A stretch of 64,000 nucleotides of DNA from Tubulanus polymorphus (lineage: Eukaryota > Animalia > Nemertea): NCBI RefSeq assembly GCF_964204645.1, contig NC_134028.1, forward strand, positions 18,173,653-18,237,652, written 5' to 3'. Position 1 is the first letter of the stretch, and each line of letters starts with the position of its first letter. The notes below the pieces were generated by a model. It was not told the origin of the DNA. It searched no databases and saw nothing but the letters and a program-made list of their open reading frames with translations. The position numbers and the translations under genes are program-made. Below are positions 36,466-64,000 of the stretch, one piece after another.

Positions 36466-39400
36466 ATTTTGGTTTTATCGCCCGCGACAATTCATTATTT
36501 TGGTTTTATCGCCCGCGATAATTCATTATTTTGGTTTTATCGCCCGCGACAATTCATTATTTTGGTTTTATCGCCCGCGACAATTCATTATTTTGGTTTT
36601 ATCGCCCGCAACAATTCATTAGTTTGGTTTTGTCACCCGCGACAATTCAAGATTTTGGTTTTTCTGCCGCGACAATTCATTTTTTGGATTTGTCGCCCGC
36701 GACAATACAATATTTTGGTTTTATCGCCAGCGACAATTCATTATTTTGGTTTAAACGCCCGCGACAATTCATTATTTTGGTTTTATCGCCCGTGACAATT
36801 CATTAATTTGGTTTTGTCACCTGCGACCAAACAATGATTTTGGTTTTATCGCCCGCGACAATTCATTATTTTGGTTTTATCGCCCGCGACAATTCATTAT
36901 TTTGGTTTTATCGCCCGCGACAATTCATAAGTTTGGTTTTGTCACCCGCGACAAATCAATATTTTGGTTTTGTCGCCCATGACAATTCAATATTTTGGTT
37001 TTTATCGCCCGCGACAATTCATTATTTTGGTTTTATCGCCCGCGACAATTCATTATTTTGGTTTTATCGCCCGCGACAATTTTTTTTTTGTTGCAGCTTT
37101 ATCGCCTGCGACAATTCATTATTTTGGTTTTATCGCCCGCGACAATCATTAGTTTGGTTTTGTCGCCCGCGACAATTCAAGATTTTGGTTTTTCTGCCGC
37201 GACAATTCATTATTTTGGTTTTGTCGCCTGGACAATTCACCAATTCACCATTTTGGTTTTGTCGCCCGCGACAATTCATTATTTTGGTTTTGTCGCCCCG
37301 ACAATTCTTTTTTTGGTTTTGTCGCCCGCGACAATTCATTAGTTTGGTTTTATCGCCTGCGACAATCAATATTTCGGTTTTATCGCCCACGACAATTCAT
37401 TACTTTGGTTTTATCTCCAGCGACAATTCATTAGTTTGGTTTTGTCGCCCGCGACAATTCAATATTTTGGTTTTGTCGCCCGCGACAATTCAATATTTTG
37501 GTTTTATCGCCTGCGACAATTCAATATTTTGGTTTTATCGCCCGCGATAATTCATTATTTTGGTTTTGTCGCCTGAGAAAATTCATTATTTTTGTTTTAT
37601 CGCCGGCGACAATTCATTATTACGGTTTTATCGCCCGCGACAATTCATTATTTTGGTTTTGTCGCCCGCGACAATTCATTATTACGGTTTTGTCGCCTTT
37701 GACAATTCATTATTTTGGTTTTATCGCCCGCGACAATTCATTATTTTGGTTTAATCGCCCGTGAAAATTCATTATTTTGGTTTAATCGCCCGTGACAATT
37801 CATTATTTTGGTTTTATCGCCCGCGAAAATTCATTATTTTGGTTTTGTCGCCTCGACAATTCTTTTTTTGGTTTTGTCGCCCGCGACAATTCATTATTTT
37901 GGTTTTGTCGCCTCGACAATTCTTTTTTTGGTTTTGTCGCCCGCGACAATTCAATATTTTGGTTTTGTCGCCCGCGACAATTCATTATTTTGGTTTAGTC
38001 GCCCGCGACAATTCATTATTTTGGTTTTGTGGCCCCGACAATTCTCTTTTTGGTTTTGTCGCCCACGACAATTCATTAGTTTGGTTTTGTCGCCCGCGAC
38101 AATCAATATTTTGGTTTTATCGCCCACGACAATTCATTACTTTGGTTTTATCTACAGCGACAATTCATTATTTTGGTTTTGTCGCCCACGACAATTCATT
38201 ATTTTGGTTTTGTCGCCCGAGAATATTCATTATTTTGGTTTTATCGCCCGCGACAATTCATTATTTTGGTTTTGTCGCCCGCGACAATTCATTATTTTGG
38301 TTTTATCGCCCATGACAATTCATTATTTTGGTTTTATCGCCCGCGACAATTGAATATTTTGGTTTTATCGCCCACGACAATTCATTAGTTTGGTTTTATC
38401 GCCCGCGACAATTCATTAGTTTGGTTTTGTCGCCCGCGACAATTCAATATTTTGGTTTTATCACCCGCGACAATTCATTAGTTTGGTATTGTCGCCCGTG
38501 ACAATTCTTTTTCAGTCCACTTGGGACTTTAGTCCCAGCGGGCTATTGTGTTCACTTTTCGTCCCTCCGTCCGTCCATAGACGGAATCCAGTTATTTTGG
38601 GAAGTTTTGAAGACGCTTCAAGGTAATGTCTTGATATTTGGTTTATACATGTATCTACCCTAGACACATCGTCAGCCCAAAAACTGGCCCTGTCAGATTC
38701 ATGATGGCCGACTGGCAGCCATTGTTGTTTGCCAAAATCAGCACTTTTTAAACATTTTCAAAGTTTTCGTGGGAAATTTTGAAGACGCTTCGATCAATTA
38801 CCTTGATCTTTCGTTTATATTTGAATCTACCAAAGGCCCATCAGCATAATAAAATTGGGTCGATCTGACTCAAGATAGCCGTCCTATGACCTTTTTAGTG
38901 CCCAAAAATGTAAACTTGGCCAGAATTCTAGGTCCTGTAGCTTCCTACTGGTTTGCCATTTCTCATTGCAATTGCTGATGGGTATTCTTTAGAGAGGGAT
39001 TTTTTATACCTGGGACAGGTATTTTTGATCAGCCTATAATGACGCAATTGACGGCCATCTTGGTGTCATCAGTACTCATTCGTAGGTGGGAAAAAGTTTT
39101 TCCACATTAAATTGATACCTAAGCATATTGTGTTACTATATTCAATTGGAAAGTTGTAGCCCATAACGTGTTCTATGATTTTGGTGAGTTTCAAGGTCTT
39201 TGGTTTTAGTATGTGGCCATCAGGGGGCGTTGAATAATACAATAACTTAGTATTGCTATATTATATTTGTACCAAGGCATATTTTGTTACCATGATCAAT
39301 TGCAAAGTTGTAGTTCATGACATCGTCTATGATTGTGGTGAGTTTTTAAGTACATTAGTTATTCCATATAGTCACCAGGGGGCGTTGAATAGTAGAATGG

Positions 39401-56790: not shown

Positions 56791-56855
56791 CAATGAAGTT
56801 TTATACAAAAGAAAGGAAAACATCATTCATGATTAAAATATTATACTTCACTAAC

Positions 56856-57265
56856 AGTAATAGGGGTAATGGGCTTTCAAGCCAAAGGTCGAACGGTCGA
56901 GCTCATTAAAAAACAAAACATTAAAAGTAATTTAAAACTATAATATATTTTCATAACCGTGTGTATTTTATATTATAACTAAATATTTATTCTAAGATAT
57001 CAATAATTAAAATTTTAAAAGCATATTATATTAAATCAATTGGTCGCTCCACTTCGCTACCGCTCCGCTTCGCGACCAATTGATTTATTTACAATACACA
57101 AATTCATATAATCAAATATATTTTAATAATAATAATTATTCTATTATTCAACTGAAATACACACGGTTATGAAAATATATTATAGTTTTAAATTACTTTT
57201 AATATTTGTTTTTAATGAACTCGACCATTCAACCTTTAACCTGAAAGCCCATTACCCCTGTTACT
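56856..57265. repeat. ~410-nt imperfect fold-back palindrome at the element terminus
   Basis: 56856-56968 pairs with 57155-57265 (inner 49 bp perfect); 57032-57047 pairs perfectly with 57072-57087; 24-nt loop. Confidence 0.95.
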
Positions 57266-57471
57266 CTTAAAATAATCATGTAAATGAATAACATTTAAAT
57301 TGACAGATTATTCACTATAAAAGTATATATTTACAACTCTATTTCAATATTCATATTTGTGTGAGTTAGATTTTTAAACATTAAAAGTGTTAGTAAAGTG
57401 TGATTGAAATAATGCATGATATAAATCATTGAACTTCTAAAATCTATTTTAATAAAAAATTTAGTATTAAA

Positions 57472-60400
57472 ATGGAAGCAAATAAGTACTACTGCCCAAC
57501 ATGTAATATCAATATAGATAAATCCCAAAAAGCGAGACACAATAAAACTAAAACACATTTAGAGAATAAATTGAAACTAGAATATAAAGATGATATATTA
57601 GAATCTAAATTAGATGAATTAAAGAATGAAAAAGAAACATACAAATGTGATACATGTAATCAATCATTCAGTGATAAAAGATATTATAATGAACATTTAA
57701 AATCTAAAAGTCATATTAGAAATAAGAATAATGATATTTTAGGTAAAGATTATTTTGATAAAGATAATGATAAGAAACAGAAGACAATTAAAAGCATAAA
57801 AAATAAATTAAACAATAAAAGACCATACATGGAAGATGTAAGAAAATATATTAATTCATTAGATAATAAAAAAGTTATAGAGATAACCGAAGCATTTAAA
57901 AGTGATATTGGCCCAGCAGCTATCGAGTTTAAATTTCATAAAGGAAAAACATTAGAAGAAAATAAAAAACATTTAGAAAATATGAAAGAAATAATAAAAA
58001 TAATAACTGATGTTGAATATCCTAAAATAAGTATATCTTCTAAAGTTAAATTCATAAAATCTGAAGATAAACCAATATATAATATAAATCCTCATTCACA
58101 ACATATTATTTCAAAACAACATATAGATGATAAATTAGATACATGTTATAATGAAGTAAAAACTAAAATAGAAGAGAAATATTTTGAAGGATCTGGTTTA
58201 ATATTTGATGAAATACTTTACATGTTTATAACACAAAATATAATAAGTTAACTAAATCGAAACCAATAGATGAAAATAATGTATCATATTATAAAGAACC
58301 AGATATTGAAGCATCGAGTTATATTAAACATCCTGCAACTTATAATATTTGTAGATTAACTCTTTATAAACCATTTGAAAATAATTATAAGATAGATAAG
58401 TATCCTGTTAGAATTAAAAACATCCCAAAGATAGAAAGAGATGATAATTTAAGAATAAATGTATTTGATTTAATCAAATTACCAAATACAAAAGGTAACA
58501 ACATAAAACATTATACATTAGAACCTTTATACCTATCAAAAGATTATGATTCAAATAATGTTATAGATATACTATATTATGAGAATCATTATATGTTGAT
58601 TAAACAAATCGATTTATTTTTTAAATCAGAAAATGATCACCATAAAATATATCTATGTAGAAAATGTTTACATAGATTCAGTAATGAAAGTACATTATTA
58701 AATCATAAACAATTATGTGAAAATCATGATTATTGTAAATTAGTTTTACCAAATGAAAAGGATAAAATATTAGAATTCAAAAAATATGATTACAAAAATA
58801 AAGTACCATTTGTAATATATGGGGATTTTGAATCATTAAATAAAGAACTAACTGATCAAGATAGAAAAGAAATATATTATAAGAGAATGAAATTAAATTC
58901 TAATGAAAATGATTATTCTGAAGAACCACCAATAACAAATACTATTAAAAAGATTCATCAATCAGCTGCAGCTTTCGGGTTATATATTAAATCTGATTAT
59001 CCAGAACTAATTGAAAGTGAATATTATGATTATAGAAATGAAAATGTTATCAATCATTTTTGTGACTTATTAATTGAATATGAAATAAGATTTAGTAAAT
59101 TATTGAATACAAATATAGAAATTATAATGACAGAAGAAGATAAAGAAGAATTTGAGTTTGCAGATAAATGTTATTATTGTGAAAAGATATTTAATTATAA
59201 AGATAAAAAAAGTAAGAGACCATGATCATTTGAATGGAAAGTTTAGAGGCGCAGTGCATGAGAATTGTAACTTACAAGCTAAGAAAATTAACTTTGTACC
59301 AGTTATATTTCATAATCTATCAGGATATGATGCACATTTATTCATCAAACAGTTATGCCATAAAATAGAAGAAATTAATAATGAAATAGAAAGATTAAAT
59401 TCAAATAGATCAAAAGATAAAATACCAACTTATAAATTTAGAATGTTAGCTAAAACATCTGAGAATTATATATCATTCCAATTTGGGTGTTTAAGATTTA
59501 TAGATTCATATAGATTTTTAAATAGTTCATTAGATAACTTATCAAAATCATTAGTTGATGATGAATTAAAGATATTAAAAGAATATTACCCAAATGATGA
59601 TGATTTTCAATTAATGAGATATAAAGGAGCAATTCCATATTCTTTCTATAAAAATCATAATGATTTTAACATAAATGAATTATTGAAAGAACAATTCTAT
59701 GATGAATTAAAAAATGAATATGTTAAAGATGAAGTCTATAATAGAACATTGAATATTTGGAATCATTTCAAAATAGAAAATCATGGGCAATTAGTAGATA
59801 TATATTTAAAATCAGATGTATTATTATTAACCGATATATTCGAAAGGTTTAGAGATGTAAACCTAAAATATTTTAACATTGATCCATGTCATTGTTATTC
59901 ATCACCAGGATTAACATGGGATTGTGGATTAAAATTTACAGGTATAAAAATGGATTTGTTAACAAATATAGATCAATTACTATTATTTGAAAAATCTATA
60001 AGAGGAGGAGTTTCAGGTGTATTAGGTGATAGATATTTCAATGTAAATGATAACCATGGATATAAGTTATTATATATAGATGCAAATAATTTGTATGGTT
60101 GGGCAATGATGGAACCACAACCTTATGGAGTATTTGAATTAACTGAAGTTTTACAGAATGAAAATAATGATAAATTTGATTGGAAGAAAAGAATTCTAGA
60201 TATTGCAGATGATTCAGATACTGGTTACTTCTTTGTTGTAGATTTAGAATATCCTGAAGATAAAAAATTTAAATCTAGAAATCTAGCATACTGCCCCGAA
60301 CATAAAACTGTAACACATGAAGAATTATCAAATTATCAAAAAAGAATTAAACCTGAAAATCATATTCATACAGAAAAGTTAATGGTAACTCAGGAAGATA

Positions 60401-61413
60401 AATATAATTATGTAGTACATTATAGAATGTTAAAGTTTTATCTAAAACAAGGAATGATCCTAAAAAAAGTACATAAATATATTTCATTCAGTCAATCTAA
60501 GTGGTTAGAAAAATATATAGATTTTAACACCAAACAGAGAACTGAAGCTAAAACTGATTTCGAGAAAGATTTCTTCAAACTAATGAATAATGCATTCTAT
60601 GGTAAGACTTGTGAAAATATTAGAAATAGAAATGATATTGAGTTAGTCAGTAATGGTAAAAGAATTAGACATTTACAATCATATCCTAAGTTCATTGGTA
60701 ACAGAATATTTGATGAAAATTTAGCTGCAGTTAAGATGAGAGGAACATCAATGAAATTTAATAAACCAATCTATGTTGGCGCATCAGTTTTAGAATTATC
60801 AAAATTACTAATGTATGAATTCTATTATAATGTATTACAACCACTTTTTGGAGAAAAACATATAGAAATACTATATTTTGATACCGATTCTTACATATTA
60901 AAGATAAAAACTGATAACATAACTGATGATTTAAAAACATTAAAACATCATTTTGATTTCAGTAACTATCCTAAAAATCATGAATTGTTTAGCAATGATA
61001 ATAAAAAAGTTCCAGGGAAGTTTAAGGATGAATTAGGTGGTGAAGAAATGATAGAGTTCATCGGTATTAGATCTAAAATGTATTCATATAAAACTAAAGA
61101 ACATGAAGCTAAAAAGTTAAAGGGAATAACCAAAAGTGTAGTAGAAAAGAATATTCATTTCAAAGATTACATCAATTGTATATTCAATGAAGAAGTTAGA
61201 AAACATAAGATGAGATGTTTAAGATCTGAAGACCATGAAATGTTTATTGAAGAAATTGAAAAGATAAGTCTAAACCCATTTGATGATAAAAGATATATTT
61301 TAGATGATGGAATTCATACAGTTGCTTATGGTTGCAATTTAGATGAATACTTAAAATTTAAAAGAGAAGAAACAAAAGAGAACGAGACAATGAAAAGAAT
61401 TCTAACGTGTTAA
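57472..61413 (+). CDS. polB: Polinton-type family B DNA polymerase (pPolB) with N-terminal C2H2 fingers and an EndoVII/HNH-like insertion; two apparent frameshifts (~58235, ~59210)
   Basis: ExoI YGDFES, ExoII FHNLSGYD, ExoIII YLKSDV, motif A YIDANNLYG, B KLMNNAFYGK, C YFDTDS, KMY; CYYC..VRDHDH..G.FRG..H..CN insertion. 58240-59205 is an open bridging frame. Confidence 0.93.
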
Positions 61414-61442
61414 TCAAATTTTAATAAAAATATGTTATTAAA

Positions 61443-61796
61443 ATGGAGAGTAAACAAACACACAGTGAGAAAAACAAATCATTTCTAGATAGAATAAAAG
61501 ATACTACAAATGTAAAATCTGTAGATTATAAATTCAAAAAGTTAACAGAATTAACAATTCATAAGAAATATCTAATTACAAATATTGATACAGTTACTAA
61601 TAACTATGGAGATAAATTAGTTATGCACTTAGAATATGAAGGATTAAAAGGAAATACACATAAATTCAGAACATATTTACCGGATAGATTTCATAGATTA
61701 TCAAGTGAAGATCTAGAAGAATTATGTTCTGGAGATTTCTATTTCGTATACAAAGGTAAGAATGAAAAGGGGCACCATGAAATAGATTTCGAATAA
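61443..61796 (+). CDS. Small beta-rich hypothetical protein (117 aa) of the Polinton-like element
   Basis: Clean ORF with FKKL.EL....Y.I....V...YG..L...L..TYLP.RF pattern; upstream motif shared with polB. Confidence 0.75.
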   Translation: MESKQTHSEKNKSFLDRIKDTTNVKSVDYKFKKLTELTIHKKYLITNIDTVTNNYGDKLVMHLEYEGLKGNTHKFRTYLPDRFHRLSSEDLEELCSGDFYFVYKGKNEKGHHEIDFE

Positions 61797-61813
61797 GAAA
61801 ATATGTAAAATAA

Positions 61814-62550
61814 ATGGTAGAATTAAAAGAATACAGAATATTTGTTGATTCAAGAAAATTTACAAATTATAAATCTCATAATTTACTAGTACAATTAGAT
61901 AGAGAATTTAAGAATTGTGTTGATTTAAAATTAGTAAATATAAGTTTATGTAATTCTTTTTACAATATAACGGATAAAACTATTGAAGATAATACTTTTT
62001 AATTCATATTGGAAATATAGATAAATGGTTTCATATAATTTTAAAACCAGGATTATATAATTTAGAAACATTAGCTCAAGAAATTAATCGAAGAGCACGG
62101 TTGAAAATTAGAAGAGATGATACATTTTTAATTAGATTTATAAAAAGTGATAGCACAAATAAAATTAAAATAAAGGTATATGATGAAAGTCAACATGCAT
62201 TTATGGTAAAAAAACCTATAGCTAAACTGTTAGGAATTGCACCAGATACTGTTACAGGAAACATAGATGGTAAATCAAATATAATACCTTTTACACACTT
62301 TTATATTTATTGCAATTTAATCGAGCCTACAAAAACATTCGAAGCAACTAAAGAAACAATTTGTAATTCTAGTATATTAAATATTTTACCATTAAAGAAT
62401 GTTAAACAATTTGGAACGCAAATAAATTATAATTTAACAGAATGTGATTTCAAACCATGCATTTCTCAATTTAATAATTTTAGATTAGAAATAAGAAATC
62501 ACAATGGATATTTAATTGATTTGAATAACTTTCCTGTAATTTATGACTAG
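61814..62550 (+). CDS. Putative minor capsid (penton) protein, one frameshift at ~62000
   Basis: ISLCNSFYNI, LKPGLYNLETL..EI, FYIYCNLI, IL.ILP, RLEIRN..G.LIDLN match the Polinton penton pattern when the two ORFs are joined. Confidence 0.7.
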
Positions 62551-62587
62551 TTATAAGATGTAGAGAGTAATTTTTTTCACTATATAA

Positions 62588-62944
62588 ATGAATATAACTG
62601 TTGGGCCGAGTATATGTTTTGGGTTTGATTTTAAACATGAGAAAGAAATGAAATTTAACATTAATGATGTAATTACACATATCAAAAATATTGCATTTTC
62701 TAATGAAACAACATTTGAGTATGAAACAACAATAGATAAAGAAACTTTAAATGTAGAAAAGATTACTAATTTAATTAGAGAATCTTTAAGATTTTATGAA
62801 TTAGATGAAGATTTTATCATCGATGATATTAAAAAAATAATAATTGAAATATATACAAATGAAACTAGTAATGAAATAAATGTTGAATTAATCATAAATA
62901 AGATAACTAAATATTTTGATGATAGTAATTTTTTTGATAAATAA
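62588..62944 (+). CDS. Acidic hypothetical protein (118 aa)
   Basis: ORF abutting its neighbours, preceded by the conserved upstream motif. Confidence 0.65.
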   Translation: MNITVGPSICFGFDFKHEKEMKFNINDVITHIKNIAFSNETTFEYETTIDKETLNVEKITNLIRESLRFYELDEDFIIDDIKKIIIEIYTNETSNEINVELIINKITKYFDDSNFFDK

Positions 62945-63166
62945 ATGAGTGATAATAAGTGGATAATAACTGGATTATATAATGGAGCATTACTATCAGT
63001 TGGAACTGTTGGTTATTCAATGGTATTAAAAAAAGTATTTAAAATGGGAAGTGTTAATATTGATAGATTTGATATAAATGATATTTTAAAATCAACATTA
63101 GCAGTTACTTTATCTAATTTAACTATTGATTATTTGGAAAAACAAAAAGATATTCCTCCCATATAA
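62945..63166 (+). CDS. Small hydrophobic protein (73 aa)
   Basis: ORF with a Gly-rich hydrophobic helix; conserved upstream motif. Confidence 0.7.
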   Translation: MSDNKWIITGLYNGALLSVGTVGYSMVLKKVFKMGSVNIDRFDINDILKSTLAVTLSNLTIDYLEKQKDIPPI

Positions 63167-63190
63167 ATACATAATTATTTTACTAAATAA

Positions 63191-63613
63191 ATGGCTTCTG
63201 CAGTTATAACTATTATAGGATCAGCAATTGTTAACGCTTTAGCATTTACTGGTGGTGGATATTTATTCAAGCATATTGATAAAAATGGTTCATTAACAGA
63301 ACAAAAAAGACATAACTTAGCATTAGAGAAATATAATAAAGCAGCAGAAGAATATAGAGAAAAACGACGAAACTATATGGGTTACATCAATAAAGAATTA
63401 TATGATCAGAAGATTTCACATAGAGATTTTGAATCAGTTGATGATGCAATGAGTTTATATAACGCGGTAACAAATAAAGAAAAATTACATCTACATAAAC
63501 CTACAATATCAGATTATTATACCCCAAGTAATGAACAACAGAAATATGAAATAATATGGATTTTAGGCGGAACTGTTATTGTTATATTTGTTGCTTATAA
63601 GTTTACTAATTAG
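63191..63613 (+). CDS. Putative membrane/coiled-coil protein (140 aa)
   Basis: Hydrophobic N-terminus, EQKRHNLALEKY helical region, C-terminal TM-like segment IIWILGGTVIVIFVAY. Confidence 0.75.
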   Translation: MASAVITIIGSAIVNALAFTGGGYLFKHIDKNGSLTEQKRHNLALEKYNKAAEEYREKRRNYMGYINKELYDQKISHRDFESVDDAMSLYNAVTNKEKLHLHKPTISDYYTPSNEQQKYEIIWILGGTVIVIFVAYKFTN

Positions 63614-63632
63614 TAATTTTTTTGCTAAATTA

Positions 63633-64000
63633 ATGGAAGATAAAGTTGATAATATTGATATTATTCCTCACGATATAAATAAAACTAAATTAAAAATATA
63701 TTTAGAAAAACAAATATTAGAATTTGAAAGTGACTTAAAGATAAGAAAGATAAAATATTTAAAAAGTAAAATTATATATTATTTGATTATAAGTGGTTCG
63801 GTTACAATTAGTTCTGTAATAACATTTCTAGCAATATTCAGTCCATTAACACCTTTAGCTATATCAATTGGTGTATTAGGATTAAGTTCAAGTGTTTTAA
63901 CTGGTATAAGTTCAAAATTAAATATAAAAATTAATAAAGAAAAAATTAAAACTAATATAAAAGAAATTAATAAATTAAAGAATACACTAGATTATATAAT
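63633..64000 (+). CDS. Partial ORF, putative two-TM membrane protein
   Basis: MEDKVDNID..IIYYLIISGSVTISSVITFLAIF..LAISIGVLGLSSSVLTGI..; open to the window end; same upstream motif. Absent from the ORF track because it has no stop in the window. Confidence 0.72.
   Translation, partial: MEDKVDNIDIIPHDINKTKLKIYLEKQILEFESDLKIRKIKYLKSKIIYYLIISGSVTISSVITFLAIFSPLTPLAISIGVLGLSSSVLTGISSKLNIKINKEKIKTNIKEINKLKNTLDYI

Follow-up and report, generated by a model that had tools for sequence, protein, structure and literature searches.

To our knowledge, the replication of a Polinton has never been directly observed. The standard model, as given in the accessible part of a preprint (bioRxiv 10.64898/2026.07.28.741278), relies on terminal proteins and on a panhandle formed between the two terminal inverted repeats (TIRs). 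Polintons/Mavericks with an Alpha-type pPolB, which carries OTU and PF03175 (accessible portions of PMC8502044 and PMC11161782), share with the element described here the AGTA starts of the TIRs, the 6-bp target duplication, the TP-vOTU-exonuclease-palm polymerase with an endonuclease insert, the rve integrase and the A32 ATPase, next to which the present element shows a weak capsid match. Unlike in those elements, each TIR here opens with a fold-back of 100–450 nt that duplicates the terminus, and no adenain-type maturation protease was matched by Pfam among the scanned ORFs, which took in only part of the smaller ones.

Terminal palindromes have been described on the Halocafeteria seosinensis virophages (subtypes 1, 2, 5 and 6) and on PLV subtype 4 (bioRxiv 10.64898/2026.07.28.741278), where they likewise lie inside the TIRs beside the duplication and where hairpin priming was proposed. 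In the accessible part of that source, the palindrome is 52 nt in the example shown, and such palindromes are found preferentially on non-pPolB elements. In contrast, the animal Polinton described here keeps a pPolB together with a predicted terminal protein, its hairpins are 2–9 times longer, and its hundreds of copies permit tests of orientation, covariation and strand bias. In the archetypal telomeres of Streptomyces, the 3' strand folds back with palindrome I on palindrome IV and with sheared G·A pairs, the folded 3' end can be extended in vitro, and the ends are protein-primed (PMC4513846, accessible portion). According to the same portion, Streptomyces replicates from an internal origin and Tap/Tpg patch the ends at several short palindromes, whereas the present element combines a single long stem with a pPolB and an integrase. 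By analogy, the hairpin most likely works like the Streptomyces telomeres but does not belong to them.

The hairpin telomeres of AAV are of the symmetric type, in contrast to the asymmetric left end of MVM. Parvovirus telomeres are likewise imperfect terminal hairpins with a paired 3' end, and the MVM left end keeps one orientation (PMC1185569, accessible portion); by comparison, no Rep/NS1 was found here, flip/flop is absent and a predicted terminal protein is present. Poxvirus telomeres are closed hairpins that are also AT-rich and imperfect, of which flip and flop forms exist (PMC8956199, accessible portion), whereas here there is no flip/flop and the integrated ends are open palindromes with target duplications. 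Replication therefore does not look like that of parvoviruses or poxviruses. A literature search, mostly of papers outside subscription, returned no description of a long terminal hairpin in an animal Polinton with a pPolB. Relative to this accessible literature, the present work adds an animal Polinton with a pPolB to the carriers of terminal palindromes, which had so far been reported on protist elements, most of them without pPolB.

The element and its terminal palindrome

The window, which is the whole stretch of 64,000 nt analysed, corresponds to G000:C4:18173653-18237652 within the 268-Mb assembly of Tubulanus polymorphus. It contains the left part of a Polinton copy, which runs ~9.7 kb past the window end through a weak capsid match, an A32 ATPase, an integrase and the right TIR. 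The features of the ends are as follows, in window positions unless a contig is given.

G000:C4:18230508-18247326: Polinton copy, 16,819 bp
56850..56855, + strand: left target-site duplication, ACTAAC
56856..57480, + strand: left TIR, 95.9% identical to the right TIR over 630 columns
56856..57265, − strand: terminal fold-back palindrome; the 3' end lies here on the minus strand, which is the better-folding strand
56856..56968, + strand: outer arm, of which positions 1–24 match the inner arm across the family
56861, 56880, 56882, 56883, 56890, 56894, 56902, 56919: mismatches of the outer stem
56969..57031, + strand: diverged AT-rich left arm, poorly paired
57032..57087, + strand: perfect 16-bp inner stem (57032-57047 / 57072-57087) with a 24-nt loop (57048-57071)
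57088..57154, + strand: diverged AT-rich right arm
57155..57265, + strand: inner arm, which repeats the terminus in inverted orientation and carries T at the wobble sites
61428..63998, + strand: small ORFs without a Pfam match
Directly after G000:C4:18247326, outside the window: right target-site duplication, GCTAAC

By the definition in the accessible part of PMC8502044, the element is a Polinton whose polymerase is of the Alpha type: its size falls within 15–20 kb, and it has long TIRs, a 6-bp duplication, a pPolB and an rve integrase. Pfam identified the A32 packaging ATPase (PF04665, E 4.8e-12) and the rve integrase with a chromodomain (PF00665, E 1e-9). The capsid candidate matched PF16903 only at E 0.007–0.017, below the cut-off, and a sequence search of the PDB with it gave no match.

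The palindrome occupies the outer 410 nt of a TIR of ~560–625 bp. The initial annotation had described this hairpin from the window alone, and its anatomy was confirmed in full: the first element base, 56856, pairs with 57265; the outer stem joins 56856-56968 to 57155-57265 and includes a mismatch-free run of 49 pairs at 56920-56968; the diverged AT-rich arms (56969-57031 / 57088-57154) follow; and the perfect 16-bp stem closes on the 24-nt loop. All eight substitution mismatches of the outer stem are indeed transitions, seven of which are G·T on the minus strand, and we further noted a 2-nt length difference near 56913 that is absent from that account. The only mismatch of the opposite direction (57260 G) is private to the window copy, A being the base in 738/746 and 696/699 of the reads. 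The inner stem-loop region is G-rich on the 3'-end strand, the outer-arm C alleles at arm positions 27/28, 35, 39 and 47 are fixed family-wide, and the interior junction CTTAAAAT comes directly after the inner arm. When both strands were folded as DNA, as had been suggested, the minus strand gave −119.0 kcal/mol and the plus strand −110.7 kcal/mol (z −21.9 and −21.2, respectively), and none of 100 shuffles folded as stably as the palindrome. The inward-pointing paired 3'-OH that the initial annotation had emphasized is present, but it is the geometry of any terminal palindrome and no evidence by itself.

The mirrored palindrome predicted at the right end was found there (C4:18247326). The right duplication had been predicted as ACTAAC; five of the six letters agree, and the first differs in the actual GCTAAC. 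Target duplications are perfect in 6/7 and 18/19 paired elements, and TIRs measure 558–891 bp across six elements. Independent Illumina reads of another sample span the whole palindrome in high coverage and connect base 56856 with numerous distinct flanks, indicating that the palindrome is not an assembly chimera; the fold-back read chimera raised earlier as a way to overturn the finding was thus not what we found. In one raw short-read run, molecule starts or ends did not pile up at the element, no free or single-stranded form was seen, and no dominant strand-switch joint appeared at the hairpin base, short reads being blind to rare intermediates.

Several other observations were made on the element and the window. 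In one further copy (L035/L036, G000:C3:18543144-18561094), which has 891-bp TIRs, the polymerase lies at the opposite end relative to the chromosome. A T-rich motif is repeated immediately before three start codons (62923-62955, 63172-63193 and 63611-63643) and a second motif is common to the starts at 57472 and ~61443; these motifs are a possible element-specific promoter or start signal. An ORF beside the right TIR (L031:8646-9311, L040:6436-6906) contains clustered cysteines and matches HNH faintly (E 0.04). The listed copies are concentrated mid-chromosome (G000:C1 12.5–19.9 Mb, C2 8.1–18.7 Mb), which, together with the integrase chromodomain, makes heterochromatin targeting possible. Elsewhere in the window, 805-2862 holds CACTA-like ORFs with matches below the cut-off to Transposase_21 (E 6e-6) and DUF4218 (E 8e-4), and a 238-aa ORF with only faint Pfam matches (36834-37550) lies in a strongly T-skewed stretch that is probably repetitive.

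Occurrence, symmetry and orientation across the family

A 23-letter terminal pattern had 722 exact matches genome-wide and a degenerate inner-arm pattern had 612, the latter suggesting about 300 elements. We examined 70 loci, 30 picked by likeness and 40 by pattern from the first 100 matches, and found complete palindromes attached to the element interior in 69/69. Sister copies lacking the hairpin had been named as grounds for abandoning the idea; the hairpin is instead family-wide, in an estimated ~300 elements. The hairpin measures 96–449 nt, and the shorter classes are mostly near-perfect. Three terminal motifs occur in the family, each normally in both arms, and the symmetry is kept in all size classes; in one element, a variant terminal motif is confined to the outer arms. 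Pairing is constant to the last base, with A/A at position 1 in 89/89 ends. The compensatory changes that the initial annotation had proposed to look for were present in 14 short ends, where 20 of the 87 predicted pairs are altered on both sides, a count of sites rather than of independent events in related rows.

The bias of the wobble pairs toward the strand bearing the 3' end, noted at first in the single window copy, was borne out family-wide by folding energies and by shared G·T sites. The 3'-end strand is the better folder in 69/69, 23/23 and 24/25 ends (in the last set, one row was re-oriented by hand, and 5 of its 30 loci yielded no partner). Shared G·T sites number 13 positions on the 3'-end strand against 1 by hand count, and 29 against 3 by a script that includes repeated sites. 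Rare private transitions are almost balanced between the strands (29 and 21), unlike the skewed shared ones, a contrast better explained by filtering than by a bias in mutation; the G·T skew is accordingly less likely to stem from strand-biased mutation alone. Position 35 is C/T in 84/89 ends, and the wobble sites persist on one strand across all size classes. Tandem G·A pairs also recur on the 3'-end strand (12 against 4), at sites that are not independent and without significance (p 0.08). Because the arms change together and the shared mismatches are G·T or G·A on the 3'-end strand, the fold is likely under selection, as judged from these alignments.

Flip/flop loop orientations, for which the initial annotation had suggested aligning the copies, did not appear: the interior junction is followed by outer-arm letters in 0 matches and by inner-arm letters in 259. 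Orientation is identical in 40/40 pattern-chosen ends. A relaxed junction pattern gave 20 matches, comprising 17 normal ones and a special one (L298), so that 17 of the 18 resolved are normal, and flop-diagnostic bases are absent among the best-supported 40 of 62 read differences. Symmetric terminal resolution was rejected on the count of 0 against 259, a rejection that does not extend to asymmetric resolution of the MVM type. The palindrome alone with its own duplication, the stand-alone MITE envisaged earlier as a refutation, occurs in 0/70 and 0/10 loci.

A few ends depart from this organization. Two derivatives of ~4 kb have no inner arm at either end, homogenized ends and perfect target duplications, and in these two the hairpin is dispensable. 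L279 and L281 each have one normal end and a perfect target duplication; at their other end, the outer arm duplicates the inner arm but carries a deletion. In L298 (G000:C4:14345121-14345388), the palindrome is flanked by element interior on both sides in the order interior-outer arm-loop-inner arm-interior, with ~69 nt of inverted interior located outside the outer arm; by its sequence, it looks like the product expected from a folded 3' end extended past the terminus. The ends of L279, L281 and L298 look like fossils of 3' fold-back extension, or they may instead be post-integration repair events. Junction-type ends amount to 1 among >600. A 396-bp mini-element (L280:1502-1897, G000:C9) was also seen, with a perfect 6-bp duplication, a truncated left end, a short interior and a full right hairpin.

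Polymerase, terminal protein and relatives

The polymerase of the window copy is split into three pieces.

57472..58251, + strand: pPolB piece 1, two zinc fingers and a predicted terminal-protein domain; the frame ends early here
58192-58194, + strand: putative linking serine codon, in FEGSG
58212..59225, + strand: pPolB piece 2, vOTU region, exonuclease start and first half of EndoVII
59131..61413, + strand: pPolB piece 3, second half of EndoVII, exonuclease and palm (PF03175, E 1.8e-15)

The polymerase frame is broken in all six near-complete copies read. The vOTU segment with the catalytic cysteine is missing from the window copy and present in most fetched sisters, and the catalytic Cys and His are invariant in the family alignment. 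We modelled the natural N-terminal frame of a sister copy (pLDDT 79) and obtained a terminal-protein topology at residues 136–257, with a predicted four-stranded sheet, two helices and Ser241 in a GSG loop before the last strand, the loop position at which the linking residue of PRD1-like terminal proteins is placed in the accessible part of PMC11161782. Ser or Thr occupies the linking position in 39/42 rows. Foldseek against the PDB returned Y-family polymerases as the best matches of this domain, weak ones of the LF/PAD type (E 0.03–0.15, probability up to 0.98), and nothing at E 0.001 or better; a likeness to Y-family polymerases is reported for PRD1-like terminal proteins in the same portion of PMC11161782. 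By prediction, the protein-priming domains are kept in the hairpin family.

The EndoVII motif was also found in the hairpin-less Polintons L167, L258, L260 and L267, and therefore nothing ties EndoVII to resolution. The proposal that the HNH/EndoVII insertion resolves the hairpin is thus not supported, and EndoVII was rejected as a dedicated resolvase. No HUH Rep/NS1 nickase-helicase was found among the Pfam-scanned ORFs.

In at least five other Polinton families of the same genome (L249-L268), seen in 6 of the 10 fetched regions, the TIRs bear no long terminal palindrome, and hairpin-less families also have recent, near-identical copies. These families include both polymerase types and mostly start with AGTAGT, and copies of the hairpin family are located within or next to several of them. 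An unrelated 254-nt imperfect palindrome, perhaps a MITE, was noticed in host DNA (L267:971-1224). Among environmental relatives, we scanned 113 loci, mostly without ends, and a long terminal palindrome is absent from four TIR-bounded contigs among them. The closest relative (L169, 85% in the palm) is represented by a sequence without a terminus. Long palindromes were seen in four distant environmental pPolB elements (L193:3-251, L234:3459-3590, L242:4524-4741 and L138:4657-4840); one of these palindromes is internal, immediately upstream of the polymerase, and the other three lie close to contig ends. The first, of at least 249 nt at a contig end, and the second, of 132 nt with the form AGTAGT...ACTACT, are candidates for terminal palindromes. 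In L168, the subterminal GGGGCGGTAT motif recurs as a short inverted copy ~100 nt inside the TIR (L168:10-105), possibly a weak version of the same hairpin design.

Possible roles of the fold-back end

With moderate confidence, we propose that the palindrome is an accessory fold-back end for protein-primed strand-displacement replication and not a replacement of protein priming. The observed basis is the position at both ends, the occurrence in ~300 elements, the two-sided change, the strand bias of the mismatches and the fixed orientation; the predicted basis is the terminal-protein fold with its serine and the vOTU with its active site. Strand-displacement copying would free a single strand, whose 3' arm could pair with the inner copy, only some hundreds of bases distant, and not with the far end 17 kb off. 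Such a local fold would rebuild a double-stranded terminus, which may aid a protein-primed restart and protect or repair the tip. The terminal protein would prime at this rebuilt terminus, and the orientation would therefore be copied unchanged, while the fixed differences between the outer and inner arms may mark the true end for priming or integration. Occasionally, the paired 3'-OH would be extended along the inner arm, so that a shortened end could be repaired and the arms kept alike, and rare extension of this kind may have left the few fossil ends. Weighing against an accessory end are that no free form was seen, that the Foldseek matches are weak, that the polymerase frames are broken and that hairpin-less families exist.

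The initial annotation had read the locus as a hairpin-primed or hairpin-ended pPolB replicon. What stands of that reading is the Polinton terminus, the mirrored end, the kept fold and the three extension-like ends; as the main mode of replication, it is countered by the missing flip/flop, the kept terminal-protein domain, the hairpin-less derivatives and an EndoVII that is not hairpin-specific. A hybrid cycle can be entertained tentatively, in which the terminal protein would serve the open end, the selected 3' fold-back would self-prime the second strand or launch copying from the chromosome, and the arm asymmetries would direct one-sided resolution. If true, this hybrid cycle would place the lineage between protein-primed and hairpin-primed linear DNA viruses, as a living intermediate.

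Routine self-priming, in which the 3' hairpin would prime the second strand in every cycle and head-to-head dimers would be resolved asymmetrically at the outer-arm boundary, appears unlikely. Only one orientation would survive, as at the MVM left end, and the terminal protein would serve the open end only. Such priming is biochemically plausible because a flush paired 3'-OH has template ahead, and it would account for the invariant pairing to the last base and for the predicted junction in L298 with its inverted interior; the fixed arm differences could act as the parvovirus bubble does (PMC1185569, accessible portion), and a hairpin-priming model has its precedent in the protist virophages and PLVs (bioRxiv 10.64898/2026.07.28.741278, accessible part). 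However, the scanned ORFs offer no Rep-type nickase or helicase, EndoVII is shared with hairpin-less elements, the two derivatives have kept perfect duplications without the hairpin, the L298 type of end is a single case, and the best 40 of the 62 read differences contain no flop-diagnostic base.

We consider it improbable that the hairpin or cruciform is only a launch signal. In this reading, the integrated element, which has no terminal protein attached, would begin copying by way of a nick at the 3' boundary, after which the end would fold back and prime copy-out. The base of the hairpin does lie exactly at the host boundary, an integrase is encoded, and the handling of the terminal protein by integrating pPolB viruses is called unclear in the accessible part of PMC11161782, but the hairpin-less families of this genome have recent near-identical copies as well, symmetric cruciform cutting would be expected to yield both orientations, and none of the 70 + 10 loci holds a stand-alone palindrome with a duplication. 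A neutral quasi-palindrome, that is, a single old fold-back accident kept symmetrical by polymerase template switching and without function, is quite improbable. Template switching can homogenize arms without selection (PMC8604942, accessible portion), the one-end conversions of L279 and L281 show that such homogenization occurs, and the feature is patchy among relatives. Yet template switching also inverts spacers, according to the same portion of PMC8604942, and no inversion was found; it should also erase G·T sites equally, whereas they persist on one strand in all size classes, with a skew in the shared mismatches and none in the private ones. Even less probable is a hairpin acting as RNA, in which an outward TIR transcript would fold with G·U and G·A pairs and feed small-RNA control: the same strand is the better folder as RNA also (−205.7 against −168.7 kcal/mol), but pairing begins exactly at DNA element base 1, the terminal motif is repeated, and Rfam returned no match at E up to 1. 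A stand-alone MITE or an assembly artefact can be dismissed, since the palindrome never stands alone with a duplication in the loci examined and reads from another sample confirm the sequence, even though the 410-nt unit has inverted ends as a mini-element would and the 396-bp deletion derivative L280 has a duplication.

The hundreds of copies thus appear to record selection on the structure of a single-stranded 3' end in an element that keeps its predicted protein-priming domains, a pattern that is sequence evidence for single-stranded ends in the replication cycle. The hairpin end defines a short DNA substrate that is testable in vitro, and the finding bears on how linear DNA viruses may have shifted between protein priming and hairpin priming.
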